Below are positions 19,683 through 60,834 of a stretch of 64,000 nt of DNA, in pieces. The stretch comes from Eledone cirrhosa (Eukaryota). The notes under the pieces are model-generated. The model was not told the DNA's origin, ran no database searches, and saw only the letters and a program-made list of their open reading frames with translations. The position numbers and the translations under genes are program-made. The first letter of the stretch is position 1; the number at the start of each line of letters is the position of its first letter. Location: the NCBI GenBank assembly GCA_964016885.1, contig OZ024745.1, forward strand, positions 3,348,001-3,412,000, written 5' to 3'.

Positions 19683-19699
19683 ACAGAGGAGTGTTATAG

Positions 19700-25029: not shown

Positions 25030-26427
25030 ACAACACAATTACAACACAGTTACAGAGTTACAACACAGTTACAGAGTTACAACACAGTTACAACACAGTT
25101 ACAACATAGTTACAATATAGGTACAACACAGTTACAACACAGTTACAACACAGTTACAACACAGTTACAACATAGTTACAATATAGGTACAACACAGTTA
25201 CAACACAGTTACAACACAGTTACAACACAGTTACAACATAGTTACAACAGTTACAACATAGTTACAACACAGCTACAACATAGTTACAACACAGTTACAA
25301 CATAGTTACAACACAGTTACAACACAGTTACAACATAGTTACAACATAGTTACAACATAGTTACAACACAGTTACAACATAGTTACAACACAGTTACAAC
25401 ATAATTACAAGACAGTTACTACATAGTTACAACACAGTTACAACATAGTTACAACACAGTTACAACATAGTTACAATATAGGTACAACACAGTTACAACA
25501 CAGTTACAACACAGTTACAACATAGTTACAATATAGGTACAACACAGTTACAACACAGTTACAACATAGTTACAACACAGTTACAACATAGTTACAATAT
25601 AGGTACAACACAGTTACAACACAGTTACAACATAGTTACAATATAGGTACAACACAGTTACAACACAGTTACAACACAGTTACAACATAGTTACAATATA
25701 GGTACAACACAGTTACAACACAGTTACAACATAGTTACAATATAGGTACAAGACAGTTACAACACAGTTACAACACAGTTACAACATAGTTACAACATAG
25801 TTACAACAGTTACAACATAGTTACAACACAGCTACAACATAGTTACAACACAGTTACAACATAGTTACAACAGTTACAACATAGTTACAACACAGCTACA
25901 ACATAGTTACAACACAGTTACAACATAGTTACAACACAGTTACAACATAGTTACAACATAGCTACAACATAGTTACAACACAGTTACAACATAGTTACAA
26001 CACAGTTACAACACAGTTACAACACAGTTACAACATAGTTACAACATAGTTACAACACAGTTACAACATAGTTACAACACAGTTACAACACAGTTACAAC
26101 ATAGTTACAACAGTTACAACATAGTTACAACACAGCTACAATACAGTTACAACACAGTTACAACATGGTTACAACACGGTTACAACACAGTTACAACATA
26201 GTTACAACATAGTTACAACATAGTTACAACACAGTTACAACATAGTTACAACATAGTTACAACACAGTTACAACACAGTTACAACATAGTTACAACATAG
26301 TTACAACATAGTTACAACACAGTTACAACACAGTTACAACACAGTTACAACACAGTTACAACATAATTACAAGACAGTTACAACATAGTTACAACACAGT
26401 TACAACACAGTTACAACACAGTTACAA
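25030..26427. repeat. 11-bp satellite (GTTACAACAYA), ~127 units
   Basis: 11-bp period; variants atataggtac and gctac; some 9-bp units. Confidence 0.98.
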
Positions 26428-32179: not shown

Positions 32180-32577
32180 ATATATAGTAAAACCTACTCC
32201 AGCCAGTAGGCATCTCTAACAAAATACACCCCGTCCCACCACCACCACCCCCACCCGATCCACACCACCCCGTTCTATGTAAAGTTATGTTGGTGCCGCG
32301 CCATCGAGGCCGAAACAAATGAGATCGTGTAGGTGTCACGACAAAAAAACACACAGTCCACGCTGTAATGTGGCCGTGTAGGCAACACGGTAAAAACCTC
32401 CCAGACCCACACTGTAAATGTGGTTGGTGTTAGGAAGGGCATCCAACTGTAGAAAACCTGCCAGACAGTCCTATGCGAGCAAGACAATCACTCTTGCCTC
32501 AAGTGGGACTACCCCCGTCCAAACCCATGCAAGCGTGGAACACGGACGTTAAACGTTGATGATGATGATGATGATGA
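29861..32577 (+). mobile_element. RTE-clade LINE copy 3, 5'-truncated, young
   Basis: Open ORF, 3' UTR and ggacgttaaacgttgatgatgat tail; TA-rich flanks. Confidence 0.97.
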
Positions 32578-32644
32578 TACTATATAAAATATATATACTT
32601 TACTAAAGATTTTCACTTCTGTTTTAAATTGTTATATATTTTAT

Positions 32645-32881: not shown

Positions 32882-35800
32882 GCTCCGACATTTGGTAACT
32901 GACTTGGTAAAATCCCACAAAATTATTAACCATCTTGCCAACAACCCTGAGCACCTTTTTGATTTCTATGTGTCTAACATACGTGGACATGCCTACAAAA
33001 TCAGAAAACAGCACAGCTACCAGGGCTTTCGGAAACAATTTTTCACGCTCAGAGTTGTTGAAGCATGGAACAAACTACTTGCTTCAGTTGTTAGCTGTCG
33101 GGACACTGCATTCTTTAAAACCTCCATGGAACAAACTACCTGCTTCAGTTGTTAGCTGTCAAGACACTGCATCCTTTAAAACGTCCATGGAACAAACTAC
33201 CTGCTTCAGTTGTTAGCTGTCAAGACACTGCATCCTTTAAAACGTCCATGGAACAAACTACCTGCTTCAGTTGTTAGCTGTCAAGACACTGCATCCTTTA
33301 AAACCTCCATGGAACAAACTACCTGCATCAGTTGTTAGCTGTCGAGACACTGCATCCTTTAAAACCTCCATGGAGCAAACTACCTGCTTCAGTTGTTAGC
33401 TGTCGAGACACTGCATCCTTTAAAACCTCCATGGAGCAAACTACCTGCATCAGTTGTTAGCTGTCAAGACACTGCATCCTTTAAAACGTCCATGGAACAA
33501 ACTACCTGCATCAGTTGTTAGCTGTCGAGACACTGCATTCTTTAAAACCTCCATGGAACAAACTACCTGCTTCAGTTGTTAGCTGTCGAGACACTGCATC
33601 CTTTAAAACCTCCATGGAACAAACTACCTGCATCAGTTGTTAGCTGTTGAGACACTGCATCCTTTAAAACCTCCATGGAGCAAACTACCTGCTTCAGTTG
33701 TTAGCTGTCGAGACACTGCATCCTTTAAAACCTCCATGGAACAAACTACCTGCATCAGTTGTTAGATGTCAGGACACTGCATCCTTTAAAACCTCCATGG
33801 AACAAACTACCTGCATCAGTTGTTAGCTGTCGAGATACTGCATCCTTTAAAACGTCCATGGAACAAACTACCTGCATCAATTGTTAGCTGTCGGGACACT
33901 GCATCCTTTAAAACCTCCATGGAACAAACTCCTTGCATCAGTTGTTAGCTGTCTAGACACTGCATGCTTTAAAACCTCCATGGAACAAACTACCTGCATC
34001 AGTTGTTAGCTGTCAGGACACTGCATCCTTTAAAACCCCCATGGAACAAACTCCTTGCATCAGTTGTTAGCTGTCGAGACACTACATCCTTTAAAACCTC
34101 CATGGAACAAACTACCTGCATCCCTGCATCAGTTGTTAGCTGTCGGGACACTGCATCCTTTAAAACCTCCATGGAACAAACTCCTTGCATCAGTTGTTAG
34201 CTGTCAAGACACTGCATCCTTTAAAACCTCCATGGAACAAACTCCTTGCATCAATTGTTAGCTGTCGAGACGCTGCATCCTTTAAAACCTCCATGGAACA
34301 AACTACCTGCATCAGTTGTTAGCAGTCGAGACACTGCATCCTTTAAAACCTCCATGGAGCAAACTACCTGCTTCAGTTGTTAGCTGTCGAGACACTGCAT
34401 CCTTTAAAACCTCCATGGAGCAAACTACCTGCATCAGTTGTTAGCTGTCAAGACACTGCATCCTTTAAAACGTCCATGGAACAAACTACCTGCATCAGTT
34501 GTTAGCTGTCGAGACACTGCATTCTTTAAAACCTCCATGGAACAAACTACCTGCATCAGTTGTTAGCTGTTGAGACACTGCATCCTTTAAAACCTCCATG
34601 GAGCAAACTACCTGCTTCAGTTGTTAGCTGTCGAGATACTGCATCCTTTAAAACGTCCATGGAACAAACTACCTGCATCAATTGTTAGCTGTCGGGACAC
34701 TGCATCCTTTAAAACCTCCATGGAACAAACTCCTTGCATCAGTTGTTAGCTGTCTAGACACTGCATGCTTTAAAACCTCCATGGAACAAACAACCTGCAT
34801 CAGTTGTTAGCTGTCAGGACACTGCATCCTTTAAAACCCCCATGGAACAAACTCCTTGCATCAGTTGTTAGCTGTCGAGACACTGCATCCTTTAAAACCT
34901 CCATGGAACAAACTACCTGCATCAGTTGTTAGCTGTCGGGACACTGCATCCTTTAAAACCTCCATGGAACAAACTCCTTGCATCAGTTGTTAGCTGTCAA
35001 GACACTGTATCCTTTAAAACCTCCATGGAACAAACTACCTGCATCAGTTGTTAGCTGTCGGGATACTGCATCCTTTAAAACCTCCATGGAACAAACTACC
35101 TGCATCAGTTGTTAGCTGTCGGGATACTGCATCCTTTAAAACCTCTAATGAACAAACTAGCTGCATCAGTTCTTAGCTGTCGAGACACTGCATCCTTTAA
35201 AACCTCCATGGAACAAACTACCTGCATCAGTTGTTAGCTGTCAAGACGCTGCATCCTTTAAAACCTCCATGGAACAAACTACCTGCATCAGTTGTTAGAT
35301 GTCAGGACACTGCATCCTTTAAAACCTCCATGGAACAAACTACCTGCATCAGTTGTTAGCTGTCGAGATACTGGATCCTTTAAAACGTCCATGGAACAAA
35401 CTACCTGCATCAATTGTTAGCTGTCGGGACACTGCATCCTTTAAAACCTCCATGGAACAAACTCCTTGCATCAGTTGTTAGCTGTCTAGACACTGCATCC
35501 TTTCAAACCCCCATGGAACAAACTCCTTGCATCAGTTGTTAGCTGTCGAGACACTGCATCCTTTAAAACCTCCATGGAACAAACTACCTGCATCCCTGCA
35601 TCAGTTGTTAGCTGTCGGGACACTGCATCCTTTAAAACCTCCATGGAACAAACTCCTTGCATCAGTTGTTAGCTGTCAAGACACTGCATCCTTTAAAACC
35701 TCCATGAAACAAACTACCTGCATCAGTTGTTAGCTGTCGGGACACTGCATCCTTTAAAACCTCTAATGAACAAACTAGCTGCATCAGTTCTTAGCTGTCG

Positions 35801-38800
35801 AGACACTGCATCCTTTAAAACCTCCATGGAACAAACTACCTGCATCAGTTGTTAGCTGTCGAGACACTGCATCCTTTAAAACCTCCATGGAGCAAACTAC
35901 CTGCTTCAGTTGTTAGCTGTCGAGACACTGCATCCTTTAAAACCTCCATGGAGCAAACTACCTGCATCAGTTGTTAGCTGTCGAGACACTGCATCCTTTA
36001 AAACGTCCATGGAACAAACTACCTGCATCAGTTGTTAGCTGTCGAGACACTGCATTCTTTAAAACCTCCATGGAACAAACTACCTGCATCAGTTGTTAGC
36101 TGTTGAGACACTGCATCCTTTAAAACCTCAATGGAGCAAACTACCTGCTTCAGTTGTTAGCTGTCGAGACACTGCATCCTTTAAAACCTCCATGGAACAA
36201 ACTACCTGCATCAGTTGTTAGATGTCAGGACACTGCATCCTTTAAAACCTCCATGGAACAAACTACCTGCATCAGTTGTTAGCTGTCGAGATACTGCATC
36301 CTTCAAAACCCCCATCGAACAAACTCCTTGCATCAGTTGTTAGCTGACGAGACACTGCATCCTTTAAAACCTCCATGGAACAAACTACCTGCATCAGTTG
36401 TTAGCTGTCGGGACACTGCATCCTTTAAAACCTCCATGGAACAAACTCCTTGCATCAGTTGTTAGCTGTCGAGACACTGCATCCTTTAAAACCTCCATGG
36501 AACAAACTACCTGCATCAGTTGTTAGCTGTCAGGATACTGCATCCTTTAAAACCTCCATGGAACAAACTACCTGCATCAGTTGTTAGCTGTCGAGATACT
36601 GCATCCTTTAAAACCTCTAATGAACAAACTACCTGCATCAATTGTTAGCTGTCGGGACACTGCATCCTTTAAAACCTCCATGGAACAAACACCTTGCATC
36701 AGTTGTTAGCTGTCTAGACACTGCATGCTTTAAAACCTCCATGGAACAAACTACCTGCATCAGTTGTTAGCTGTCAGGACACTGCATCCTTTAAAACCCC
36801 CATGGAACAAACTCCTTGCATCAGTTGTTAGCTGTCGAGACACTGCATCCTTTAAAACCTCCATGGAACAAACTAACTGCATCAGTTGTTAGCTGTCAGG
36901 ACACTGCATCCTTTAAAACCCCCATGGAACAAACTCCTTGCATCAGTTGTTAGCTGTCGAGACACTGCATCCTTTAAAACCTCCATGGAACAAACTACCT
37001 GCATCAGTTGTTAGCTGTCGGGACACTGCATCCTTTAAAACCTCCATGGAACAAACTACCTGCATCAGTTGTTAGCTGTCGGGACACTGCATCCTTTAAA
37101 ACCTCCATGGAACAAACTCCTTGCATCAGTTGTTAGCTGTCAAGACACTGCATCCTTTAAAACCTCCATGGAACAAACTACCTGCATCAGTTGTTAGCTG
37201 TCGGGATACTGCATCCTTTAAAACCTCCATGGAACAAACTACCTGCATCAGTTGTTAGCTGTTGGGACACTGCATCCTTTAAAACCTCTAATGAACAAAC
37301 TAGCTGCATCAGTTCTTAGCTGTCGAGACACTGCATCCTTTAAAACCTCCATGGAACAAACTACCTGCATCAGTTGTTAGCTGTCAAGACGCTGCATCCT
37401 TTAAAACCTCCATGGAACAAACTAGCTGCATCAGTTGTTAGCTGTCGAGACACTGCATCCTTTAAAACCTCCATGGAGCAAACTACCTGCTTCAGTTGTT
37501 AGCTGTCGAGACACTGCATCCTTTAAAACCTCCATGGAGCAAACTACCTGCATCAGTTGTTAGCTGTCAAGACACTGCATCCTTTAAAACGTCCATGGAA
37601 CAAACTACCTGCATCAGTTGTTAGCTGTCGAGACACTGCATTCTTTAAAACCTCCATGGAACAAACTACCTGCATCAGTTGTTAGCTGTTGAGACACTGC
37701 ATCCTTTAAAACCTCCATGGAGCAAACTACCTGCTTCAGTTGTTAGCTGTCGAGACACTGCATCCTTTAAAACCTCCATGGAACAAACTACCTGCATCAG
37801 TTGTTAGATGTCAGGACACTGCATCCTTTAAAACCTCCATGGAACAAACTACCTGCATCAGTTGTTAGCTGGCGAGATACTGCATCCTTTAAAACGTCCA
37901 TGGAACAAACTACCTGCATCAATTGTTAGCTGTCGGGACACTGCATCCTTTAAAACCTCCATGGAACAAACTCCTTGCATCAGTTGTTAGCTGTCTAGAC
38001 ACTGCATGCTTTAAAACCTCCATGGAACAAACTACCTGCATCAGTTGTTAGCTGTCAGGACACTGCATCCTTTAAAACCCCCATGGAACAAACTCCTTGC
38101 ATCAGTTGTTAGCTGTCGAAACACTGCATCCTTTAAAACCTCCATGGAACAAACTACCTGCATCAGTTGTTAGCTGTCGGGACACTGCATCCTTTAAAAC
38201 CTCCATGGAACAAACTCCTTGCATCAGTTGTTAGCTGTCAAGACACTGCATCCTTTAAAACCTCCATGGAACAAACTACCTGCATCAGTTGTTAGCTGTC
38301 GGGATACTGCATCCTTTAAAACCTCCATGGAACAAACTACCTGCATCAGTTGTTAGCTGTCGGGATACTGCATCCTTTAAAACCTCTAATGAACAAACTA
38401 GCTGCATCAGTTCTTAGCTGTCGAGACACTGCATCCTTTAAAACCTCCATGGAACAAACTACCTGCATCAGTTGTTAGCTGTCAAGACGCTGCATCCTTT
38501 AAAACCTCCATGGAACAAACTACCTGCATCAGTTGTTAGATGTCAGGACACTGCATCCTTTAAAACCTCCATGGAACAAACTACCTGCATCAGTTGTTAG
38601 CTGTCGAGATACTGGATCCTTTAAAACGTCCATGGAACAAACTACCTGCATCAATTGTTAGCTGTCGGGACACTGCATCCTTTAAAACCTCCATGGAACA
38701 AACTCCTTGCATCAGTTGTTAGCTGTCTAGACACTGCATGCTTTAAAACCTCCATGGAACAAACTACCTGCATCAGTTGTTAGCTGTCAGGACACTGCAT

Positions 38801-41800
38801 CCTTTCAAACCCCCATGGAACAAACTCCTTGCATCAGTTGTTAGCTGTCGAGACACTGCATCCTTTAAAACCTCCATGGAACAAACTACCTGCATCCCTG
38901 CATCAGTTGTTAGCTGTCGGGACACTGCATCCTTTAAAACCTCCATGGAACAAACTCCTTGCATCAGTTGTTAGCTGTCAAGACACTGCATCCTTTAAAA
39001 CCTCCATGAAACAAACTACCTGCATCAGTTGTTAGCTGTCGGGACACTGCATCCTTTAAAACCTCTAATGAACAAACTACCTGCATCAGTTCTTAGCTGT
39101 CGAGACACTGCATCCTTTAAAACCTCCATGGAACAAACTACCTGCATCAGTTGTTAGCTGTCAAGACGCTGCATCCTTTAAAACCTCCATGGAACAAACT
39201 ACCTGCATCAGTTGTTAGCTGTCGAGACACTGCATCCTTTAAAACCTCCATGGAGCAAACTACCTGCTTCAGTTGTTAGCTGTCGAGACACTGCATCCTT
39301 TAAAACCTCCATGGAGCAAACTACCTGCATCAGTTGTTAGCTGTCAAGACACTGCATCCTTTAAAACGTCCATGGAACAAACTACCTGCATCAGTTGTTA
39401 GCTGTCGAGACACTGCATTCTTTAAAACCTCCATGGAACAAACTACCTGCATCAGTTGTTAGCTGTTGAGACACTGCATCCTTTAAAACCTCAATGGAGC
39501 AAACTACCTGCTTCAGTTGTTAGCTGTCGAGACACTGCATCCTTTAAAACCTCCATGGAACAAACTACCTGCATCAGTTGTTAGATGTCAGGACACTGCA
39601 TCCTTTAAAACCTCCATGGAACAAACTACCTGCATCAGTTGTTAGCTGTCGAGATACTGCATCCTTTAAAACGTCCATGGAACAAACTACCTGCATCAAT
39701 TGTTAGCTGTCGGGACACTGCATCCTTTAAAACCTCCATGGAACAAACTCCTTGCATCAGTTGTTAGCTGTCTAGACACTGCATGCTTTAAAACCTCCAT
39801 GGAACAAACTACCTGCATCAGTTGTTAGCTGTCAGGACACTGCATCCTTTAAAACCCCCATGGAACAAACTCCTTGCATCAGTTGTTGGCTGACGAGACA
39901 CTGCATCCTTTAAAACCTCCATGGAACAAACTACCTGCATCAGTTGTTAGCTGTCGGGACACTGCATCCTTTAAAACCTCCATGGAACAAACTCCTTGCA
40001 TCAGTTGTTAGCTGTCGAGACACTGCATCCTTTAAAACCTCCATGGAACAAACTACCTGCATCAGTTGTTAGCTGTCAGGATACTGCATCCTTTAAAACC
40101 TCCATGGAACAAACTACCTGCATCAGTTGTTAGCTGTCGGGATACTGCATCCTTTAAAACCTCTAATGAACAAACTACCTGCATCAATTGTTAGCTGTCG
40201 GGACACTGCATCCTTTAAAACCTCCATGGAACAAACTCCTTGCATCAGTTGTTAGCTGTCTAGACACTGCATGCTTTAAAACCTCCATGGAACAAACTAC
40301 CTGCATCAGTTGTTAGCTGTCAGGACACTGCATCCTTTAAAACCCCCATGGAACAAACTCCTTGCATCAGTTGTTAGCTGTCGAGACACTGCATCCTTTA
40401 AAACCTCCATGGAACAAACTAACTGCATCAGTTGTTAGCTGTCAGGACACTGCATCCTTTAAAACCCCCATGGAACAAACTCCTTGCATCAGTTGTTAGC
40501 TGTCGAGACACTGCATCCTTTAAAACCTCCATGGAATAAACTACCTGCATCAGTTGTTAGCTGTCGGGACACTGCATCCTTTAAAACCTCCATGGAACAA
40601 ACTACCTGCATCAGTTGTTAGCTGTCGGGACACTGCATCCTTTAAAACCTCCATGGAACAAACTCCTTGCATCAGTTGTTAGCTGTCAAGACACTGCATC
40701 CTTTAAAACCTCCATGGAACAAACTACCTGCATCAGTTGTTAGCTGTCGGGATACTGCATCCTTTAAAACCTCCATGGAACAAACTACCTGCATCAGTTG
40801 TTAGCTGTTGGGACACTGCATCCTTTAAAACCTCTAATGAACAAACTAGCTGCATCAGTTCTTAGCTGTCGAGACACTGCATCCTTTAAAACCTCCATGG
40901 AACAAACTACCTGCATCAGTTGTTAGCTGTCAAGACGCTGCATCCTTTAAAACCTCCATGGAACAAACTAGCTGCATCAGTTGTTAGCTGTCGAGACACT
41001 GCATCCTTTAAAACCTCCATGGAGCAAACTACCTGCTTCAGTTGTTAGCTGTCGAGACACTGCATCCTTTAAAACCTCCATGGAGCAAACTACCTGCATC
41101 AGTTGTTAGCTGTCAAGACACTGCATCCTTTAAAACGTCCATGGAACAAACTACCTGCATCAGTTGTTAGCTGTCGAGACACTGCATTCTTTAAAACCTC
41201 CATGGAACAAACTACCTGCATCAGTTGTTAGCTGTTGAGACACTGCATCCTTTAAAACCTCCATGGAGCAAACTACCTGCTTCAGTTGTTAGCTGTCGAG
41301 ACACTGCATCCTTTAAAACCTCCATGGAACAAACTACCTGCATCAGTTGTTAGATGTCAGGACACTGCATCCTTTAAAACCTCCATGGAACAAACTACCT
41401 GCATCAGTTGTTAGCTGTCTAGACACTGCATGCTTTAAAACCTCCATGGAACAAACTACCTGCATCAGTTGTTAGCTGTCAGGACACTGCATCCTTTAAA
41501 ACCCCCATGGAACAAACTCCTTGCATCAGTTGTTAGCTGTCGAAACACTGCATCCTTTAAAACCTCCATGGAACAAACTACCTGCATCAGTTGTTAGCTG
41601 TCGGGACATTGCATCCTTTAAAACCTCCATGGAACAAACTCCTTGCATCAGTTGTTAGCTGTCAAGACACTGCATCCTTTAAAACCTCCATGAAACAAAC
41701 TACCTGCATCAGTTGTTAGCTGTCGGGACACTGCATCCTTTAAAACCTCTAATGAACAAACTACCTGCATCAGTTGTTAGCTGTCGAGACACTGCATCCT

Positions 41801-44800
41801 TTAAAACCTCCATGGAACAAACTACCTGCATCAGTTGTTAGCTGTCAGGATACTGCATCCTTTAAAACCTCCATGGAACAAACTACCTGCATCAGTTGTT
41901 AGCTGTCGGGATACTGCATCCTTTAAAACCTCTAATGAACAAACTACCTGCATCAATTGTTAGCTGTCGGGACACTGCATCCTTTAAAACCTCCATGGAA
42001 CAAACTCCTTGCATCAGTTGTTAGCTGTCTAGACACTGCATGCTTTAAAACCTCCATGGAACAAACTACCTGCATCAGTTGTTAGCTGTCAGGACACTGC
42101 ATCCTTTAAAACCCCCATGGAACAAACTCCTTGCATCAGTTGTTAGCTGTCGAGACACTGCATCCTTTAAAACCTCCATGGAACAAACTAACTGCATCAG
42201 TTGTTAGCTGTCAGGACACTGCATCCTTTAAAACCCCCATGGAACAAACTCCTTGCATCAGTTGTTAGCTGTCGAGACACTGCATCCTTTAAAACCTCCA
42301 TGGAACAAACTACCTGCATCAGTTGTTAGCTGTCGGGACACTGCATCCTTTAAAACCTCCATGGAACAAACTACCTGCATCAGTTGTTAGCTGTCGGGAC
42401 ACTGCATCCTTTAAAACCTCCATGGAACAAACTACCTGCATCAGTTGTTAGCTGTCAAGACACTGCATCCTTTAAAACCTCCATGGAACAAACTACCTGC
42501 ATCAGTTGTTAGCTGTTGGGACACTGCATCCTTTAAAACCTCTAATGAACAAACTAGCTGCATCAGTTGTTAGCTGTCAAGACGCTGCATCCTTTAAAAC
42601 CTCCATGGAACAAACTAGCTGCATCAGTTGTTAGCTGTCGAGACACTGCATCCTTTAAAACCTCCATGGAGCAAACTACCTGCTTCAGTTGTTAGCTGTC
42701 GAGACACTGCATCCTTTAAAACCTCCATGGAGCAAACTACCTGCATCAGTTGTTAGCTGTCAAGACACTGCATCCTTTAAAACCTCCATGAAACAAACTA
42801 CCTGCATCAGTTGTTAGCTGTCGGGACACTGCATCCTTTAAAACCTCTAATGAACAAACTACCTGCATCAGTTCTTAGCTGTCGAGACACTGCATCCTTT
42901 AAAACCTCCATGGAACAAACTACCTGCATCAGTTGTTAGCTGTCAAGACGCTGCATCCTTTAAAACCTCCATGGAACAAACTACCTGCATCAGTTGTTAG
43001 CTGTCGAGACACTGCATCCTTTAAAACCTCCATGGAGCAAACTACCTGCTTCAGTTGTTAGCTGTCGAGACACTGCATCCTTTAAAACCTCCATGGAGCA
43101 AAGTACCTGCATCAGTTGTTAGCTGTCAAGACACTGCATCCTTTAAAACGTCCCTGGAACAAACTACCTGCATCAGTTGTTAGCTGTCGAGACACTGCAT
43201 TCTTTAAAACCTACATGGAACAAACTACCTGCATCAGTTGTTAGCTGTTGAGACACTGCATCCTTTAAAACCTCAATGGAGCAAACTACCTGCTTCAGTT
43301 GTTAGCTGTCGAGACACTGCATCCTTTAAAACCTCCATGGAACAAACTACCTGCATCAGTTGTTAGATGTCAGGACACTGCATCCTTTAAAACCTCCATG
43401 GAACAAACTACCTGCATCAGTTGTTAGCTGTCGAGATACTGCATCCTTTAAAACGTCCATGGAACAAACTACCTGCATCAATTGTTAGCTGTCGGGACAC
43501 TGCATCCTTTAAAACCTCCATGGAACAAACTCCTTGCATCAGTTGTTAGCTGTCTAGACACTGCATGCTTTAAAACCTCCATGGAACAAACTACCTGCAT
43601 CAGTTGTTAGCTGTCAGGACACTGCATCCTTTAAAACCCCCATGGAACAAACTCCTTGCATCAGTTGTTAGCTGACGAGACACTGCATCCTTTAAAACCT
43701 CCATGGAACAAACTACCTGCATCAGTTGTTAGCTGTCAGGATACTGCATCCTTTAAAACCTCCATGGAACAAACTACCTGCATCAGTTGTTAGCTGTCGG
43801 GATACTGCATCCTTTAAAACCTCTAATGAACAAACTACCTGCATCAATTGTTAGCTGTCGGGACACTGCATCCTTTAAAACCTCCATGGAACAAACTCCT
43901 TGCATCAGTTGTTAGCTGTCTAGACACTGCATGCTTTAAAACCTCCATGGAACAAACTACCTGCATCAGTTGTTAGCTGTCAGGACACTGCATCCTTTAA
44001 AACCCCCATGGAACAAACTCCTTGCATCAGTTGTTAGCTGTCGAGACACTGCATCCTTTAAAACCTCCATGGAACAAACTAACTGCATCAGTTGTTAGCT
44101 GTCAGGACACTGCATCCTTTAAAACCCCCATGGAACAAACTCCTTGCATCAGTTGTTAGCTGTCGAGACACTGCATCCTTTAAAACCTCCATGGAACAAA
44201 CTACCTGCATCAGTTGTTAGCTGTCGGGACACTGCATCCTTTAAAACCTCCATGGAACAAACTACCTGCATCAGTTGTTAGCTGTCGGGACACTGCATCC
44301 TTTAAAACCTCCATGGAACAAACTACCTGCATCAGTTGTTAGCTGTCAAGACACTGCATCCTTTAAAACCTCCATGGAACAAACTACCTGCATCAGTTGT
44401 TAGCTGTTGGGACACTGCATCCTTTAAAACCTCTAATGAACAAACTAGCTGCATCAGTTGTTAGCTGTCAAGACGCTGCATCCTTTAAAACCTCCATGGA
44501 ACAAACTAGCTGCATCAGTTGTTAGCTGTCGAGACACTGCATCCTTTAAAACCTCCATGGAGCAAACTACCTGCTTCAGTTGTTAGCTGTCGAGACACTG
44601 CATCCTTTAAAACCTCCATGGAGCAAACTACCTGCATCAGTTGTTAGCTGTCAAGACACTGCATCCTTTAAAACCTCCATGAAACAAACTACCTGCATCA
44701 GTTGTTAGCTGTCGGGACACTGCATCCTTTAAAACCTCTAATGAACAAACTACCTGCATCAGTTCTTAGCTGTCGAGACACTGCATCCTTTAAAACCTCC

Positions 44801-47800
44801 ATGGAACAAACTACCTGCATCAGTTGTTAGCTGTCAAGACGCTGCATCCTTTAAAACCTCCATGGAACAAACTACCTGCATCAGTTGTTAGCTGTCGAGA
44901 CACTGCATCCTTTAAAACCTCCATGGAGCAAACTACCTGCTTCAGTTGTTAGCTGTCGAGACACTGCATCCTTTAAAACCTCCATGGAGCAAAGTACCTG
45001 CATCAGTTGTTAGCTGTCAAGACACTGCATCCTTTAAAACGTCCATGGAACAAACTACCTGCATCAGTTGTTAGCTGTCGAGACACTGCATTCTTTAAAA
45101 CCTACATGGAACAAACTACCTGCATCAGTTGTTAGCTGTTGAGACACTGCATCCTTTAAAACCTCAATGGAGCAAACTACCTGCTTCAGTTGTTAGCTGT
45201 CGAGACACTGCATCCTTTAAAACCTCCATGGAACAAACTACCTGCATCAGTTGTTAGATGTCAGGACACTGCATCCTTTAAAACCTCCATGGAACAAACT
45301 ACCTGCATCAGTTGTTAGCTGTCGAGATACTGCATCCTTTAAAACGTCCATGGAACAAACTACCTGCATCAATTGTTAGCTGTCGGGACACTGCATCCTT
45401 TAAAACCTCCATGGAACAAACTCCTTGCATCAGTTGTTAGCTGTCTAGACACTGCATGCTTTAAAACCTCCATGGAACAAACTACCTGCATCAGTTGTTA
45501 GCTGTCAGGACACTGCATCCTTTAAAACCCCCATGGAACAAACTCCTTGCATCAGTTGTTAGCTGACGAGACACTGCATCCTTTAAAACCTCCATGGAAC
45601 AAACTACCTGCATCAGTTGTTAGCTGTCGGGACACTGCATCCTTTAAAACCTCCATGGAACAAACTCCTTGCATCAGTTGTTAGCTGTCGAGACACTGCA
45701 TCCTTTAAAACCTCCATGGAACAAACTACCTGCATCAGTTGTTAGCTGTCAGGATACTGCATCCTTTAAAACCTCCATGGAACAAACTACCTGCATCAGT
45801 TGTTAGCTGTCGGGATACTGCATCCTTTAAAACCTCTAATGAACAAACTACCTGCATCAATTGTTAGCTGTCGGGACACTGCATCCTTTAAAACCTCCAT
45901 GGAACAAACTCCTTGCATCAGTTGTTAGCTGTCTAGACACTGCATGCTTTAAAACCTCCATGGAACAAACTACCTGCATCAGTTGTTAGCTGTCAGGACA
46001 CTGCATCCTTTAAAACCCCCATGGAACAAACTCCTTGCATCAGTTGTTAGCTGTCGAGACACTGCATCCTTTAAAACCTCCATGGAACAAACTAACTGCA
46101 TCAGTTGTTAGCTGTCAGGACACTGCATCCTTTAAAACCCCCATGGAACAAACTCCTTGCATCAGTTGTAAGCTGTCGAGACACTGCATCCTTTAAAACC
46201 TCCATGGAACAAACTACCTGCATCAGTTGTTAGCTGTCGGGACACTGCATCCTTTAAAACCTCCATGGAACAAACTACCTGCATCAGTTGTTAGCTGTCG
46301 GGACACTGCATCCTTTAAAACCTCCATGGAACAAACTACCTGCATCAGTTGTTAGCTGTCAAGACACTGCATCCTTTAAAACCTCCATGGAACAAACTAC
46401 CTGCATCAGTTGTTAGCTGTTGGGACACTGCATCCTTTAAAACCTCTAATGAACAAACTAGCTGCATCAGTTCTTAGCTGTCGAGACACTGCATCCTTTA
46501 AAACCTCCATGGAACAAACTACCTGCATCAGTTGTTAGCTGTCAAGACGCTGCATCCTTTAAAACCTCCATGGAACAAACTAGCTGCATCAGTTGTTAGC
46601 TGTCGAGACACTGCATCCTTTAAAACCTCCATGGAGCAAACTACCTGCTTCAGTTGTTAGCTGTCGAGACACTGCATCCTTTAAAACCTCCATGGAGCAA
46701 ACTACCTGCATCAGTTGTTAGCTGTCAAGACACTGCATCCTTTAAAACGTCCATGGAACAAACTACCTGCATCAGTTGTTAGCTGTCGAGACACTGCATT
46801 CTTTAAAACCTCCATGGAACAAACTACCTGCATCAGTTGTTAGCTGTTGAGACACTGCATCCTTTAAAACCTCCATGGAGCAAACTACCTGCTTCAGTTG
46901 TTAGCTGTCGAGACACTGCATCCTTTAAAACCTCCATGGAACAAACTACCTGCATCAGTTGTTAGATGTCAGGACACTGCATCCTTTAAAACCTCCATGG
47001 AACAAACTACCTGCATCAGTTGTTAGCTGTCGAGATACTGCATCCTTTAAAACGTCCATGGAACAAACTACCTGCATCAATTGTTAGCTGTCGGGACACT
47101 GCATCCTTTAAAACCTCCATGGAACAAACTCCTTGCATCAGTTGTTAGCTGTCGGGACACTGCATGCTTTAAAACCTCCATGGAACAAACTACCTGCATC
47201 AGTTGTTAGCTGTCAGGACACTGCATCCTTTAAAACCTCCATGGAACAAACTCCTTGCATCAGTTGTTAGCTGTCGAAACACTGCATCCTTTAAAACCTC
47301 CATGGAACAAACTACCTGCATCAGTTGTTAGCTGTCGGGACACTGCATCCTTTAAAACCTCCATGGAACAAACTCCTTGCATCAGTTGTTAGCTGTCAAG
47401 ACACTGCATCCTTTAAAACCTCCATGGAACAAACTACCTGCATCAGTTGTTAGCTGTCGGGATACTACATCCTTTAAAACCTCCATGGAACAAACTACCT
47501 GCATCAGTTGTTAGCTGTCGGGATACTGCATCCTTTAAAACCTCTAATGAACAAACTAGCTGCATCAGTTCTTAGCTGTCGAGACACTGCATCCTTTAAA
47601 ACCTCCATGGAACAAACTACCTGCATCAGTTGTTAGCTGTCAAGACGCTGCATCCTTTAAAACCTCCATGGAACAAACTACCTGCATCAGTTGTTAGATG
47701 TCAGGACACTGCATCCTTTAAAACCTCCATGGAACAAACTACCTGCATCAGTTGTTAGCTGTCGAGATACTGCATCCTTTAAAACGTCCATGGAACAAAC

Positions 47801-50800
47801 TACCTGCATCAATTGTTAGCTGTCGGGACACTGCATCCTTTAAAACCTCCATGGAACAAACTCCTTGCATCAGTTGTTAGCTGTCTAGACACTGCATGCT
47901 TTAAAACCTCCATGGAACAAACTACCTGCATCAGTTGTTAGCTGTCAGGACACTGCATCCTTTCAAACCCCCATGGAACAAACTCCTTGCATCAGTTGTT
48001 AGCTGTCGAGACACTGCATCCTTTAAAACCTCCATGGAACAAACTACCTGCATCCCTGCATCAGTTGTTAGCTGTCGGGACACTGCATCCTTTAAAACCT
48101 CCATGGAACAAACTCCTTGCATCAGTTGTTAGCTGTCAAGACACTGCATCCTTTAAAACCTCCATGGAACAAACTACCTGCATCAGTTGTTAGCTGTCGG
48201 GATACTGCATCCTTTAAAACCTCCATGGAACAAACTACCTGCATCAGTTGTTAGCTGTCGGGACACTGCATCCTTTAAAACCTCTAATGAACAAACTACC
48301 TGCATCAGTTCTTAGCTGTCGAGACACTGCATCCTTTAAAACCTCCATGGAACAAACTACCTGCATCAGTTGTTAGCTGTCAAGACGCTGCATCCTTTAA
48401 AACCTCCATGGAACAAACTACCTCCATCAGTTGTTAGCTGTCGAGACACTGCATCCTTTAAAACCTCCATGGAGCAAACTACCTGCTTCAGTTGTTAGCT
48501 GTCGAGACACTGCATCCTTTAAAACCTCCATGGAACAAACTACCTGCATCAGTCGTTAGATGTCAGGACACTGCATCCTTTAAAACCTCCATGGAACAAA
48601 CTACCTGCATCAGTTGTTAGCTGTCGAGATACTGCATCCTTTAAAACGTCCATGGAACAAACTACCTGCATCAATTGTTAGCTGTCGGGACACTGCATCC
48701 TTTAAAACCTCCATGGAACAAACTCCTTGCAACAGTTGTTAGCTGTCTAGACACTGCATGCTTTAAAACCTCCATGGAACAAACTACCTGCATCAGTTGT
48801 TAGCTGTCAGGACACTGCATCCTTTAAAACCACCATGGAACAAACTCCTTGCATTAGTTGTTAGCTGTCAAGACACTGCATCCTTTAAAACCTCCAAACT
48901 ACCTGCATCAGTTGTTAGCTGTCGGGACACTGCATCCTTTAAAACCTCCATGGAACAAACTCCTTGCATCAGTTGTTAGCTGTCGAGACACTGCATCCTT
49001 TAAAACCTCCATGGAACAAACTACCTGCATCAGTTGTTAGCTGTCGGGACACTGCATCCTTTAAAACCTCCATGGAACAAACTCCTTGCATCAGTTGTTA
49101 GCTGTCGAGACACTGCATCCTTTAAAACCTCCATGGAACAAACTACCTGCATCAGTTGTTAGCTGTCAGGATACTGCATCCTTTAAAACCTCCATGGAAC
49201 AAACTACCTGCATCAGTTGTTAGCTGTCGAGATACTGCATCCTTTAAAACGTCCATGGAACAAACTACCTGCATCAATTGTTAGCTGTCGGGACACTGCA
49301 TCCTTTAAAACCTCCAAGGAACAAACTACCTGCATCAGTTGTTAGCTGTCGGGACACTGCATCCTTTAAAACCTCCATGGAACAAACTCCTTGCATCAGT
49401 TGTTAGCTGTCAAGACACTGCATCCTTTAAAACCTCCATGGAACAAACTACCTGCATCAGTTGTTAGCTGTCGGGATACTGCATCCTTTAAAACCTCCAT
49501 GGAACAAACTACCTGCATCAGTTGTTAGCTGTTGGGACACTGCATCCTTTAAAACCTCTAATGAACAAACTAGCTGCATCAGTTCTTAGCTGTCGAGACA
49601 CTGCATCCTTTAAAACCTCCATGGAACAAACTACCTGCATCAGTTGTTAGCTGTCAAGACGCTGCATCCTTTAAAACCTCCATGGAACAAACTAGCTGCA
49701 TCAGTTGTTAGCTGTCGAGACACTGCATCCTTTAAAACCTCCATGGAGCAAACTACCTGCTTCAGTTGTTAGCTGTCGAGACACTGCATCCTTTAAAACC
49801 TCCATGGAGCAAACTACCTGCATCAGTTGTTAGCTGTCAAGACACTGCATCCTTTAAAACGTCCATGGAACAAACTACCTGCATCAGTTGTTAGCTGTCG
49901 AGACACTGCATTCTTTAAAACCTCCATGGAACAAACTACCTGCATCAGTTGTTAGCTGTTGAGACACTGCATCCTTTAAAACCTCCATGGAGCAAACTAC
50001 CTGCTTCAGTTGTTAGCTGTCGAGACACTGCATCCTTTAAAACCTCCATGGAACAAACTACCTGCATCAGTTGTTAGATGTCAGGACACTGCATCCTTTA
50101 AAACCTCCATGGAACAAACTACCTGCATCAGTTGTTAGCTGTCGAGATACTGCATCCTTTAAAACGTCCATGGAACAAACTACCTGCATCAATTGTTAGC
50201 TGTCGGGACACTGCATCCTTTAAAACCTCCATGGAACAAACTCCTTGCATCAGTTGTTAGCTGTCTAGACACTGCATCCTTTAAAACCTCCATGGAACAA
50301 ACTACCTGCATCAGTTGTTAGCTGTCAGGACACTGCATCCTTTAAAACCCCCATGGAACAAACTCCTTGCATCAGTTGTTAGCTGTCGAGACACTGCATC
50401 CTTTAAAACCTCCATGGAACAAACTACCTGCATCCCTGCATCAGTTGTTAGCTGTCGGGACACTGCATCCTTTAAAACCTCCATGGAACAAACTCCTTGC
50501 ATCAGTTGTTAGCTGTCAAGACACTGCATCCTTTAAAACCTCCATGGAACAAACTACCTGCATCAGTTGTTAGCTGTCGGGATACTGCATCCTTTAAAAC
50601 CTCCATGGAACAAACTACCTGCATCAGTTGTTAGCTGTCGGGATACTGCATCCTTTAAAACCTCTAATGAACAAACTAGCTGCATCAGTTCTTAGCTGTC
50701 GAGACACTGCATCCTTTAAAACCTCCATGGAACAAACTACCTGCATCAGTTGTTAGATGTCAGGACACTGCATCCTTTAAAACCTCCATGGAACAAACTA

Positions 50801-53800
50801 CCTGCATCAGTTGTTAGCTGTCGAGATACTGCATCCTTTAAAACGTCCATGGAACAAACTACCTGCATCAATTGTTAGCTGTCGGGACACTGCATCCTTT
50901 AAAACCTCCATGGAACAAACTCCTTGCATCAGTTGTTAGCTGTCTAGACACTGCATGCTTTAAAACCTCCATGGAACAAACTACCTGCATCAGTTGTTAG
51001 CTGTCAGGACACTGCATCCTTTCAAACCCCCATGGAACAAACTCCTTGCATCAGTTGTTAGCTGTCGAGACACTGCATCCTTTAAAACCTCCATGGAACA
51101 AACTACCTGCATCCCTGCATCAGTTGTTAGCTGTCGGGACACTGCATCCTTTAAAACCTCCATGGAACAAACTCCTTGCATCAGTTGTTAGCTGTCAAGA
51201 CACTGCATCCTTTAAAACCTCCATGGAACAAACTACCTGCATCAGTTGTTAGCTGTCGGGATACTGCATCCTTTAAAACCTCCATGGAACAAACTACCTG
51301 CATCAGTTGTTAGCTGTCGGGACACTGCATCCTTTAAAACCTCTAATGAACAAACTACCTGCATCAGTTCTTAGCTGTCGAGACACTGCATCCTTTAAAA
51401 CCTCCATGGAACAAACTACCTGCATCAGTTGTTAGCTGTCAAGACGCTGCATCCTTTAAAACCTCCATGGAACAAACTACCTCCATCAGTTGTTAGCTGT
51501 CGAGACACTGCATCCTTTAAAACCTCCATGGAGCAAACTACCTGCTTCAGTTGTTAGCTGTCGAGACACTGCATCCTTTAAAACCTCCATGGAACAAACT
51601 ACCTGCATCAGTCGTTAGATGTCAGGACACTGCATCCTTTAAAACCTCCATGGAACAAACTACCTGCATCAGTTGTTAGCTGTCGAGATACTGCATCCTT
51701 TAAAACGTCCATGGAACAAACTACCTGCATCAATTGTTAGCTATCGGGACACTGCATCCTTTAAAACCTCCATGGAACAAACTCCTTGCAACAGTTGTTA
51801 GCTGTCTAGACACTGCATGCTTTAAAACCTCCATGGAACAAACTACCTGCATCAGTTGTTAGCTGTCAGGACACTGCATCCTTTAAAACCCCCATGGAAC
51901 AAACTCCTTGCATCAGTTGTTAGCTGTCGAGACACTGCATCCTTTAAAACCTCCATGGAACAAACTACCTGCATCAGTTGTTAGCTGTCGGGACACTGCA
52001 TCCTTTAAAACCTCCATGGAACAAACTCCTTGCATCAGTTGTTAGCTGTCGAGACACTGCATCCTTTAAAACCTCCATGGAACAAACTACCTGCATCAGT
52101 TGTTAGCTGTCAGGATACTGCATCCTTTAAAACCTCCATGGAACAAACTACCTGCATCAGTTGTTAGCTGTCGAGATACTGCATCCTTTAAAACGTCCAT
52201 GGAACAAACTACCTGCATCAATTGTTAGCTGTCGGGACACTGCATCCTTTAAAACCTCCATGGAACAAACTCCTTGCAACAGTTGTTAGCTGTCTAGACA
52301 CTGCATGCTTTAAAACCTCCATGGAACAAACTACCTGCATCAGTTGTTAGCTGTCAGGACACTGCATCCTTTAAAACCCCCATGGAACAAACTCCTTGCA
52401 TCAGTTGTTAGCTGTCGAGACACTGCATCCTTTAAAACCTCCATGGAACAAACTACCTGCATCAGTTGTTAGCTGTCGGGACACTGCATCCTTTAAAACC
52501 TCCATGGAACAAACTCCTTGCATCAGTTGTTAGCTGTCGAGACACTGCATCCTTTAAAACCTCCATGGAACAAACTACCTGCATCAGTTGTTAGCTGTCA
52601 GGATACTGCATCCTTTAAAACCTCCATGGAACAAACTACCTGCATCAGTTGTTAGCTGTCGGGATACTGCATCCTTTAAAACCTCTAATGAACAAACTAG
52701 CTGCATCAGTTCTTAGCTGTCGAGACACTGCATCCTTTAAAACCTCCATGGAACAAACTACCTGCATCAGTTGTTAGCTGTCAAGATGCTGCATCCTTTA
52801 AAACCTCCATGGAACAAACTACCTGCATCAGTTGTTAGCTGTCAGGACACTGCATCCTTTAAAACCCCCATGGAACAAACTCCTTGCATCAGTTGTTAGC
52901 TGTCGAGACACTGCATCCTTTAAAACCTCCATGGAACAAACTACCTGCATCAGTTGTTAGCTGTCGGGACACTGCATCCTTTAAAACCTCCATGGAACAA
53001 ACTACCTGCATCAGTTGTTAGCTGTCGGGACACTGCATCCTTTAAAACCTCCATGGAACAAACTCCTTGCATCAGTTGTTAGCTGTCAAGACACTGCATC
53101 CTTTAAAACCTCCATGGAACAAACTACCTGCATCAGTTGTTAGCTGTCGGGATACTGCATCCTTTAAAACCTCCATGGAACAAACTACCTGCATCAGTTG
53201 TTAGCTGTCGGGCCACTGCATCCTTTAAAACCTCTAATGAACAAACTAGCTGCATCAGTTCTTAGCTGTCGAGACACTGCATCCTTTAAAACCTCCATGG
53301 AACAAACTACCTGCATCAGTTGTTAGCTGTCAAGACGCTGCATCCTTTAAAACCTCCATGGAACAAACTAGCTGCATCAGTTGTTAGCTGTCGAGACACT
53401 GCATCCTTGAAAACCTCCATGGAACAAACTACCTGCATCAGTTGTTAGCTGTCAAGACACTGCATCCTTTAAAACCTCCATGGAACAAACTAGCTGCATC
53501 AGTTCTTAGCTGTCGAGACACTGCATCCTTTAAAATCTCCATGGAACAAACTACCTGCATCAGTGTTTAGCTGTCAAGACACTGCATCCTTTAAAACCTC
53601 CATGGAACAAACTACCTGCATCAGTTGTTAACTGTCAAGACACTGCATCCTTTAAAACCTCCATGCTTCCTGAGATTCACCAACACTACACCTTATATTC
53701 CCCCTCCATAGACACGCACACATGTATACCATGACTCATACACTGTTCACTTTACTGACATTTGTATATTATTCTATGTACTATACATGCACCTTTGATG

Positions 53801-53853
53801 AGTTGTAGTGCACCTGAGCACTGTACACAATAATTTCATTATTATTATTATTA
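32882..53853 (+). mobile_element. 5'-truncated CR1-clade LINE containing the 61-bp satellite
   Basis: 32882-33063 matches the reverse complement of ~59160-59350; 53662-53853 matches the reverse complement of ~58955-59102, including gagttgtagtgcacctgagcact and the (TTA)n tail. Confidence 0.95.
33064..53665. repeat. 61-bp LINE-derived satellite, ~337 units
   Basis: Consensus CATGGAACAAACTACCTGCATCAGTTGTTAGCTGTCGAGACACTGCATCCTTTAAAACCTC; the 20598-bp span equals 337x61 after allowing for six 8-bp insertions and one 7-bp deletion counted by eye. Confidence 0.99.
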
Positions 53854-53959: not shown

Positions 53960-54070
53960 GTTTGTTCCAGATTTCTGGGCTTTGAGTTCAAATCCCATTG
54001 AGATCAACTTTGCTTTTTTTCCTTTCGGGGTCAATAAAATAAAAATACCAGTCAAGTTCTGGGATCAATT
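53960..54070 (+). mobile_element. tRNA-derived SINE fragment
   Basis: gagttcaaatccc...tcaactttgc...cctttcggggtcaataaaat...taccagtcaagttctgggatcaat. Confidence 0.8.
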
Positions 54071-58953: not shown

Positions 58954-60834
58954 AATAATAATAATAATAATAATGAAATTATGTGTAAAGTGCTCAGGTG
59001 CACTACAACTCGTCAATATAGTACATAGAATAATACACAAATGTCAGGGAAGTACATGTGTGTATGTGTTAGCTGTAGTGTTGGCGGATCTCGGGAAGCA
59101 TGGAGGCCTTAAAGGGTGCAGTGTCTCGACAGCTAACAACTGATGCAGGTAGTTTGTTCCATGCTTCAGCAACTCTGAGCGTGAAAAAATGTTTCCGAAA
59201 GTCATGGGAACTGTGCTGTTTTCTTACTTTGTGGGCATGTCCACGTGTGTTAGACACATGGAAATCGAAAAGGTACTCAGGGTTGTTGTTGGCAACATGG
59301 TTAACAATTTTGTGGGTGTTTACCAAGTCAGTTGCCAGGCGTCGGAGCTTCAATGAATCCATGCCCAGGGAAGCAGGGCGCTCAGAGTATGGTAGATGCC
59401 TGATGGAGGGTATTCGCTTGGTTGCACGTCTCTGAACAGTTTCCAGGCGGTCAATGTCCTGAGCAAGATAGGGGTTCCAGACTGGTGATGCAAATTCTAA
59501 GTGTGGTCGCACCATAGCTGTATACAGCCTTAAATAGATATCTGGAGAGCGGCTGACAAAGGTCTTGCTGAGTGATGCTAAGACACCCTCGGCCCTCTTG
59601 ACAATTTTAGAGACGTGCCTCGTCCAACGCAAATCGCTGCTGACCGTAATGCCCAGGTCACGTTCACAGGAAGACTTGTTGATATTAGTGCTGTGCAGGG
59701 AGTATGTGGACGCTGGGTTTTTACTACCAAAATGCATGGCGGTGCACTTGTCCACAGCTAGCTTGAGTTGCCAGTCTGAGATCCATTGTTGCATTGTGTC
59801 CAGGTCAGACTGCAAGCAAGATCTATAGTGTTCAGGATCTGCCCTTTTTATCTCAAGGTACAGCTTGATGTCGTCTGCGTACTTTAGTACTGTGGCATTC
59901 CTTAAGTTGGCATCTATGTCATTAATATATGCCACAAACAAAAGGGGGCCAAGAACAGATCCCTGAGGTACACCAGATGACATCTCATATGGTGAAGAAT
60001 GCTGTCCCAGAACCGTGACTACCTCTCTTCGACTGAGAATGAAGGACTTCAACCAGTTAAAAAGATCATCCTTCACACCCATTGCAGAGAGTTTTGCCAT
60101 AAGCCTTTTGTGTGGCACAGAATTGAAGGCCTTCGCAAAGTCAAGGTAAACAACATCCACCCATGAGCCGCCATCAGTGATCCGGGTGATGTCCTCAAGA
60201 AACTCTATAAGTTGATCACAGCAGCTGGAGTTGGGGATAAATCCAAATTGCGAGGGCCGGATAAGACTGTGAGAGCTCCAGAAGTTCCAAAGTGTTTCTC
60301 TGACACAGGATTCCATCAGTTTGGCGATGCAACTAGTAAGACTGACTGGACGATAGTTCACAGGTGATGTGCGGTCACCCTTTTTGAACAGAGGAATGAC
60401 ACTGGCAGTTTTCCACTGTTCTGGAGTAGCACTGTTGTTGCGAAGAGGACCAACTGGAGAGTGAGGCCTCTGCTTTGAGTGAACATACTTCCAGAACACC
60501 TTACTGTCAGGGCTGGTTGCTATGCGCTGCTCAAATTGAAGCACTGCCTTTTTTGTCACCTGTTTGAGGTGGTTGGACGATCTATTTCGCCTCTTCCTAT
60601 TAATGTCTGATTTGTGAAGTTTGTACTCACGTTCAGCATTGCGCTGTTCTCTTCTGGCAAGACGGACTGCTGCAGTCTCCCAAATTGCGCTTTTGGGATG
60701 TTTTTTCCGCTTACGTGGCACCGATGCTGCACATGCTGTCCATATTGAGCTCAGGATGTTCTGGAGTACAGTGTTGACATCTCCAGAGTCATAGAACTCA
60801 AGCCAGTTTGGCCGTTGCAACTCGGTGCAGTAAC
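58953..60834 (-). mobile_element. CR1-clade LINE, 5'-truncated, inserted in the 30-bp satellite
   Basis: (TAA)n tail at 58953-58973, 3' UTR, RT ORF; satellite on both sides. Confidence 0.96.
59069..60820 (-). CDS. CR1-type ORF2 reverse transcriptase (5'-truncated, probable internal deletion)
   Basis: WKTASVIPLFKKG, NYRPVSLTS, QFGF, YLDFAKAFNSVPH, SGVPQGSVLGPLLF, YADD, ERDLGI, VRPHLEFASPVWNP, FFTLRVAEAWNKLP. Confidence 0.9.
   Translation of the reverse strand: MQRPNWLEFYDSGDVNTVLQNILSSIWTACAASVPRKRKKHPKSAIWETAAVRLARREQRNAEREYKLHKSDINRKRRNRSSNHLKQVTKKAVLQFEQRIATSPDSKVFWKYVHSKQRPHSPVGPLRNNSATPEQWKTASVIPLFKKGDRTSPVNYRPVSLTSCIAKLMESCVRETLWNFWSSHSLIRPSQFGFIPNSSCCDQLIEFLEDITRITDGGSWVDVVYLDFAKAFNSVPHKRLMAKLSAMGVKDDLFNWLKSFILSRREVVTVLGQHSSPYEMSSGVPQGSVLGPLLFVAYINDIDANLRNATVLKYADDIKLYLEIKRADPEHYRSCLQSDLDTMQQWISDWQLKLAVDKCTAMHFGSKNPASTYSLHSTNINKSSCERDLGITVSSDLRWTRHVSKIVKRAEGVLASLSKTFVSRSPDIYLRLYTAMVRPHLEFASPVWNPYLAQDIDRLETVQRRATKRIPSIRHLPYSERPASLGMDSLKLRRLATDLVNTHKIVNHVANNNPEYLFDFHVSNTRGHAHKVRKQHSSHDFRKHFFTLRVAEAWNKLPASVVSCRDTAPFKASMLPEIRQHYS

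Follow-up and report, generated by a model that had tools for sequence, protein, structure and literature searches.

The 64,000-nucleotide window analyzed here (Eledone cirrhosa, contig OZ024745.1, positions 3,348,001 to 3,412,000; C5:3.35-3.41 Mb of a 3.0-Gb genome) contains a tandem array with a 61-bp unit that is a piece of a long interspersed nuclear element (LINE). The same piece is repeated in tandem, in the same register, in about 1,000 copies of this element. We consider it likely that the joint between units moved from copy to copy at dispersed sites, with ectopic recombination as the likely route, after a rare founding jump that was probably aided by a hairpin. Variants that mark LINE subfamilies document the transfer of the joint between copies; the chemistry of this transfer we infer from the sequences.

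The array in the window starts within the left arm (GAAGCATGGA) and ends within the right arm (TCCATGCTTC) of a perfect 10-bp stem. Each arm occurs only twice in the window, the former at 33060 and 59095, the latter at 53660 and 59158. The second occurrences belong to an unexpanded copy of the LINE, where the CATG cores of the arms are 61 bp apart. Because this copy lies on the minus strand, the arm at 59095 is the element's right arm. These boundaries and this distance had been proposed in an earlier note on the same DNA and are confirmed here, as is its statement that most junctions form a new palindrome: 271 of 335 junctions read TCCATGGA. We detected 336 unit starts with spacings of 61 bp (328 times), 69 bp (six times) and 115 bp (once), corresponding to 337 head-to-tail units homologous to part of a transposable element, as is typical of element-derived mini- and satellites. 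The units are heterogeneous (74 distinct types), and multi-unit blocks are duplicated. On both sides the array is flanked by LINE sequence, with 182 bp of open reading frame 2 (ORF2) before it and the last codons, the untranslated region (UTR) and an (ATT)n tail after it. No target-site duplication of at least 6 bp was found for the array.

That the element is a LINE follows from a 593-residue open frame with a reverse transcriptase domain (Pfam RVT_1, E 1e-38) and from a fixed 3′ end, with (ATT)n tails and 5′ truncation points scattered among copies. It is a putative member of the CR1 clade, on the basis of the C-terminal motif RVxxAWNxLP; the Atlas gives RVT_1 clusters only, and the window copy is truncated before any endonuclease. 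Both arms fall in the coding sequence of ORF2, and an extra 61-bp unit, read from the sequence, replaces the last few residues of ORF2 by EQTTCISC-stop. Three subfamilies, AA, GG and ACT, can be told apart by the bases just before the right CATG.

To count arrays across the genome we used strict sequence patterns for array starts, array ends and single-unit copies; the start pattern found 35 of 47 arrays known otherwise. In one register there are at least 927 array starts, 804 array ends and 3,563 unexpanded single-unit copies, and each of the three main subfamilies sampled contains arrays. An exact junction 19-mer is present 20,162 times and matches 596 of 968 sampled junctions, from which we estimate about 33,000 units, or about 2 Mb. 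From the 100 listed starts 90 arrays were retrieved, ranging from 2 to more than 59 units. Both LINE ends were in register in 81 of these; four ran off the fetched stretch, four end otherwise and one failed the left-end match. Read by eye, the flanks of most of the 90 arrays are unrelated. In-register flank sharing is clear only for the locus pairs L048/L171, L143/L144 (5′ side) and L157/L179 (3′ side), and other flank matches apparently reflect continued LINE sequence or a common neighboring repeat. We can therefore exclude a single segmentally duplicated array. The recurrence in one register across independent insertions, the lack of which the earlier note had named as a refutation, also eliminates a one-off slippage (927 starts against 3,563 monomers). 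A tree was built from flanking LINE sequence without the units; it keeps only the 113 rows that have a readable UTR and at least 100 bp upstream. The 59 arrays among them are scattered over this tree and require 30 changes, seven of them forced by well-supported branches. Raw reads from a separate study also show a 61-bp back-jump with four shared letters (1,145 of them, with about 38 start places). This junction in independent reads, together with the heterogeneity of the units, rules out an assembly artifact. Among coded organisms the 61-bp joint is listed for A and C (for one of them in contigs) and not for B, D, E, F and G, where its lack is not the same as absence because these data are mostly contigs, which drop variants. 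Loose ends in organisms B, D and F suggest a right arm that lacks the inner pairs. No holder of the joint was listed in RNA data.

Expansion depends on chromosome position. Of the 82 array starts on C1 and C2, 74 are less than 35 Mb away from an end, compared with 3 of 21 control monomers (p 3e-11). Arrays make up 17 of the 56 copies at 0-33 Mb of C1 and none of the 61 copies at 33-64 Mb. Chromosomes C1-C4 (1,617 Mb) carry nine GG-ended arrays and C20-C24 (166 Mb) carry 37, whereas the corresponding control numbers are 34 and 6 (p 1e-9); the density of GG-ended arrays drops with chromosome length (rho -0.75; control rho -0.40, p 0.06). For the young GG subfamily, the 96 copies listed at 33-419 Mb of C1 include no listed GG-ended array, as opposed to two of four copies at 0-33 Mb. 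Since jumping at the time of insertion should be independent of the landing site, this bias counts against expansion by the LINE reverse transcriptase. The first 13 Mb of C25 hold 22 listed GG-ended arrays, about 300 times the density on C1-C4. Small interior clusters occur on the largest chromosomes (C2 at 215-219 and 269 Mb; C3 at 127-129, 235 and 291 Mb; C1 at 332 Mb) and might be old chromosome ends after fusion or segmental copies such as L048/L171 and L143/L144. Position also matters locally. Among 89 arrays, with one segmental twin dropped, those less than 5 Mb apart share unit variants above the level for shuffled positions (p 0.0015; p 0.0095 for less than 1 Mb). Such sharing was not seen in monomer units (70), array UTRs (76) or monomer UTRs (65), with p about 0.3.

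The subfamily markers identify where junctions came from. A search for ACT units gave 1,200 matches, the first 100 listed being 99 monomers and one dimer. The pattern for ACT-ended arrays matched 24 times, four times in monomers, which leaves 20 arrays. The last junction of these arrays was non-ACT in 18, hybrid in one and own-type in one; two of the 18 were foreign only in the final three bases. Under strict criteria no diagnostic sites were detected upstream, and a two-site upstream marker was substituted, which is ACT-type in 24 of 26 typed ACT monomers and non-ACT in 53 of 54 others. By this marker the upstream flank was ACT-type in seven of nine typable ACT-ended arrays with a foreign junction. 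ACT-type junctions, with 13 matches in seven places, occurred in two ACT elements on C12 and in five non-ACT elements; three of the seven places lie within 0.74 Mb on C12. The ACT tract covers both the end of a unit and the beginning of the following one in four of the five non-ACT elements; in L283 it covers the end only. Upstream, four of the five could be typed, all of them as non-ACT. Foreign tracts therefore lie between flanks of the recipient's own type. The same junction sits at many loci inside an abundant resident repeat and passes between loci, with more sharing between neighbors, as in the interlocus spread of Rsp-like satellites. A site-independent frequency with a change of template at the junction, which would characterize template jumping by reverse transcriptase, was not observed.

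Dimers and small arrays retain further traces of transfer. The two units of 36 dimers differ by a mean of 3.8 bases, compared with 5.0 for random pairs of monomers, and only 1 of 33 rare variants is common to both units. Loci L278, L279 and L281 contain each own marker once and are compatible with a single crossover with a circle. In L282-L286 and L300 part of the own unit is present twice; the arrangement at these six loci would fit a switch out of the resident unit followed by a switch back to an earlier point.

What the stem contributes can be judged from several built-in comparisons. As the earlier note had proposed, the 3′ end of the LINE (226 nt) is predicted to fold with the stem (z -2.9); the 73-nt piece from arm to arm folds no better than shuffled sequences (z -1.1). 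A 10-bp stem somewhere in a LINE is unremarkable by chance, but the coincidence of the breakpoints with the stem is unlikely. Only 3 of the 1,124 microhomology pairs (at least 4 bp, 20-200 bp apart) within a 1,860-bp copy lie inside a perfect inverted repeat of at least 10 bp, and the founding event therefore probably used the hairpin. Hence the idea that folding brings the two CATGs together plausibly explains how the register was set once. As a mechanism acting in each copy it is mostly unsupported. One of the other two such pairs provides a natural control: a second perfect 10-bp stem with AGCT cores 60 bp apart is carried by 1,114 copies and has a similar energy as DNA (-5.6 vs -6.0 kcal/mol), and a junction derived from its duplication gave no match in the genome. 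Hairpin geometry by itself is thus not a frequent generator, at any rate within the lifetime of the young GG subfamily. Plain microhomology slippage was likewise rejected: of 81 single-unit copies in which the arms are separated by an additional 1-30 bases, none contains the 27-bp duplication that the longer 7-bp repeat CTGCATC would give. A reciprocal 61-bp deletion had no exact match. When LINE-derived sequence from 267 loci (about 146 kb aligned) was scanned for tandem repeats, the 61-bp register was the only one to emerge. The sole other register, seen by eye, is a locus-specific array of about 27 bp upstream in L168 (C3, about 38.96 Mb), which comes from another part of ORF2.

Conservation of the stem by compensatory change, also raised in the earlier note, is not borne out, and the arms show no sign of a conserved functional RNA stem in this respect: ACT alters two inner bases of the right arm, and the left arm is unchanged. 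The outer 8 bp are fixed by the search patterns, so that invariance there is uninformative. Folding predictions form the stem in five of five AA copies (pair probability 0.68-0.99), but rarely in ACT copies. GG copies expand readily despite a stem that is predicted to be weaker in context. In the GG subfamily (window positions 59067-59167) the two 10-bp stems interleave in a pseudoknot-like manner, and the AGCT arm is predicted to be able to pair with the distal UTR as well. At L238 (C9:53499100-53499174) two left arms stand head to head in a 75-bp stretch that matches on both strands. Here the unit's first half has been copied in fold-back orientation, possibly through hairpin template switching.

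These observations are best connected as follows. Once or a few times, a nascent strand would have folded on the 10-bp stem, setting its CATG end beside the upstream CATG, and resumed synthesis would have produced the TC|CATG|GA junction. Later, a strand within a resident single unit could switch to an existing array, copy one or more junctions and return to its own locus, by gene conversion or by template switching in replication repair. The recipient would retain its own ORF2 flank and UTR, gain units and become a new donor. Such exchange would be favored at chromosome ends, on small chromosomes, between neighbors and between similar subfamilies. Unequal exchange within a locus would then expand an array, as the duplicated blocks among the 337 units of the window array suggest.

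Several findings weigh against this interpretation. The own-type GG junction predominates among GG-ended arrays: a hand count of the last junctions in the first 100 of 158 listed arrays gave 62 GG, 32 AA and 6 others, with types forming regional runs (on C21, 11 of 11 GG). This majority needs GG-biased donors, new events or a conversion that acts on the terminal unit by way of the 8-bp CCTCCATG window. The ACT subfamily is expanded about tenfold less (about 21 of 1,200, compared with roughly 10-16% for GG), and it is not younger (monomer UTR divergence 3.4% for ACT, 2.7% for GG). Its unit has seven mismatches to the common unit, with the inner stem broken and predicted to be mostly unfolded. 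Poor homology to donors and a lasting involvement of the stem account equally well for the low expansion of ACT. The unshared rare variants in dimers would also fit duplication at the time of insertion. The upstream LINE is shorter in arrays than in monomers (median 150 vs 406 bp; older subfamilies 150 vs 373 bp), and unit number drops with upstream length (rho -0.26), which might reflect the run length of the reverse transcriptase or selection that disfavors long copies in regions of high recombination. The neighbor effect is modest, the link of expansion to recombination rate is drawn from chromosome position, and the bootstrap of the flanking-LINE tree had not converged.

Some of these findings could also be explained if the hairpin were a standing hot spot at which, in the course of replication or repair, copies near chromosome ends double their own unit de novo, with imported junctions as a secondary effect. 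The own-type GG majority, the low expansion of ACT with its broken inner stem and the predicted folding in AA as opposed to ACT are in keeping with this idea, as are a few small arrays in which every unit carries the same rare variant (four such variants among 55 arrays with 2-4 units). We nevertheless regard it as unlikely: the single rare variant shared by dimer units compares with one third expected under a uniform duplication time (p 3e-5), the equivalent AGCT stem is idle in all 1,114 copies, GG expands readily with a weaker stem, and the reciprocal deletion is missing among exact matches. A different vehicle for the same spread would be a circle of 61n bases, cut from arrays and inserted in a single unit through one crossover. 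Drosophila is known to have satellite circles (PMC7403614), and a circle would account for gain without reciprocal deletion and for the three loci with each own marker once. One crossover cannot generate the six loci with part of the own unit twice, and the neighbor bias better suits tethered donors, which makes the circle rather improbable as the main vehicle.

The earlier note had suggested repeated template jumping between the two CATGs. If the LINE reverse transcriptase jumped from the left to the right CATG during insertion, or rolled on a 61-nt RNA circle, then gain without deletion, unshared rare variants in dimers and shorter 5′ ends in arrays would all be expected, and RNA folding of the 3′ end does predict the stem. 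Such jumps could explain the few interior dimers and the founding event. As the main source of arrays we hold this very doubtful, because the C1 copies at 33-64 Mb include no array, those listed for young GG at 33-419 Mb include no listed GG-ended one, and foreign tracts that straddle a junction between own-type flanks would require three template switches. More generally, position dependence, imported junctions, dissimilar dimer units and the idle AGCT stem leave repeated de novo jumping in each copy, whether in reverse transcription or later, unsupported as the main source of arrays. Finally, a few master elements might already have been multimeric and have been retrotransposed as such, given that an extra unit only swaps the last ORF2 residues and dimers may stay mobile. 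We find this scarcely credible. Arrays form no clades on the flanking-LINE tree, the position bias argues against it, and the closest pair of dimers, L048/L171, shares its flank and is a segmental copy. Array ends also do not outnumber starts (804 vs 927, from different patterns), although 5′ truncation inside arrays would create such ends.

Beyond the transfer of joints between dispersed copies, which we prefer, a more far-reaching view is possible but tentative: the 61-bp junction may be a selfish, gain-biased sequence that spreads through the LINE family like an epidemic, with copies as docking sites and then as donors and with the hairpin still triggering breaks or releasing circles. If this were true, the LINE family would become a dispersed satellite copy by copy where recombination is high, with no need for transposition.

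Coordinates of the features in the window are collected in Table 1. The unexpanded LINE splits a 30-bp satellite (56665-58954 and 60835-61703). About 14 bp present at both of its edges fit a target duplication and are inseparable from the satellite. The six further tandem arrays are unrelated to the LINE unit, and this chromosome end expands repeats of many kinds. Two degenerate LINE pieces of a different kind, with endonuclease- and reverse transcriptase-like stretches, lie at about 17700-21910 and are presumably RTE-like; the second ends in a (GAT)n tail, and a similar 3′ end is found at about 32000-32580. Pieces resembling short interspersed nuclear elements (SINEs) occupy 53985-54070 and 62300-62435. 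Elsewhere in the genome, one short repeat is found behind the LINE tail, at varying offsets, in the 3′ flanks of L038, L045, L077, L124, L144, L151, L174 and L230, which suggests a SINE that favors these tails.

Table 1. Repeats and LINE features in the 64,000-nucleotide window
Feature	Position	Strand	Remarks
Tandem array, 26-bp unit	1-13557		unrelated to the LINE unit
Tandem array, 18-bp unit	15349-16139		unrelated to the LINE unit
Tandem array, 52-bp unit	16864-17232		unrelated to the LINE unit
Tandem array, 32-bp unit	23771-24828		unrelated to the LINE unit
Tandem array, 11-bp unit	25030-26427		unrelated to the LINE unit
5′-truncated LINE ORF2 remnant leading into the array	32882..33063	+	182 bp, 87% identity to the unexpanded copy
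Left arm GAAGCATGGA	33060..33069	+	CATG at 33064-33067 begins unit 1; codes for part of the ORF2 C-terminal EAWN
337 head-to-tail 61-bp units	33064..53661	+	
Right arm TCCATGCTTC	53660..53669	+	CATG at 53662-53665
Final ORF2 codons, 3′ UTR and (ATT)n tail of the array's insertion	53666..53853	+	UTR of older AA type
Unexpanded, 5′-truncated LINE copy	58956..60834	-	young GG subfamily; open reverse transcriptase frame 59069-60850, stop to stop; inside the 30-bp satellite
Second perfect 10-bp inverted repeat	59067..59138	-	palindromic AGCT cores 60 bp apart; GG subfamily
Single unit between arms	59095..59167	-	left arm 59158-59167, right arm 59095-59104
Tandem array, 27-bp unit	62953-64000		unrelated to the LINE unit

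How one satellite reaches many chromosomes is an old question that is usually argued from indirect evidence. Here, one genome offers about 1,000 arrays, more than 4,700 unconverted docking sites and three marked subfamilies that label donor and recipient, together with controls in the form of a second stem, a longer unused repeat and a subfamily with a broken stem. Direction, tract length and the dependence of ectopic transfer on distance and homology can thereby be counted from one assembly, and the proportion of copies that are converted may provide a historical map of recombination.

Parts of this behavior are familiar from other systems. Xstir tandem repeats are carried by a Xenopus miniature inverted-repeat transposable element, and a stem-loop origin has been proposed for them. 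They too form variable numbers of tandem units inside many dispersed mobile-element copies; there a DNA transposon moves the array, whereas the evidence here points to units arriving after insertion. Human subtelomeric minisatellites mutate by conversion-like transfer of units between alleles, with a chromosome-end bias, a patchwork of donor units and duplication of recipient sequence that all recur here. Unlike that allelic process, the transfer described here is non-allelic and starts from single units. In the literature covered, mostly outside subscription papers and supplements, neither this repeat nor a conversion of LINE copies into arrays with a single register is described; an entry for the 61-bp repeat may already exist in a repeat library.

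Satellites and minisatellites derived from transposable elements are well documented, and include the Alu/B1 minisatellites explained by the Haber-Louis model with short flanking repeats, the chicken HinfI and CR1-C centromeric repeats and an L1-derived cetacean satellite (PMC6947457, PMC9659126). In the portions of these reports available to us, part of a non-LTR (long terminal repeat) element between short direct repeats becomes a tandem unit and grows by unequal exchange or conversion, as in our case. They describe the origin of an array; here one register recurs in about 1,000 dispersed, otherwise intact insertions. A local origin of the Haber-Louis kind does not describe these arrays, given the direct repeat of 4 bp inside a stem (5-10 bp are quoted for the model), the foreign junctions, the dissimilar dimer units and the unused 7-bp repeat. 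A further parallel is the spread of Rsp-like satellites through 1.688 clusters in Drosophila simulans and D. mauritiana, for which interlocus gene conversion or reintegration of circles has been proposed (PMC7403614). There as here a junction born from microhomology reaches many loci by using an abundant resident repeat as its landing site, and the target sequence is sometimes duplicated. In Drosophila one satellite invades another, whereas in the present genome retrotransposon copies with a single unit serve as landing sites, the cargo comes from within that same element, neither boundary varies, and donor and recipient can be recognized by their subfamily markers. Satellites derived from transposable elements and the spread of satellites between loci are thus known; what differs here is that landing sites and cargo come from the same LINE and that the ends are fixed.

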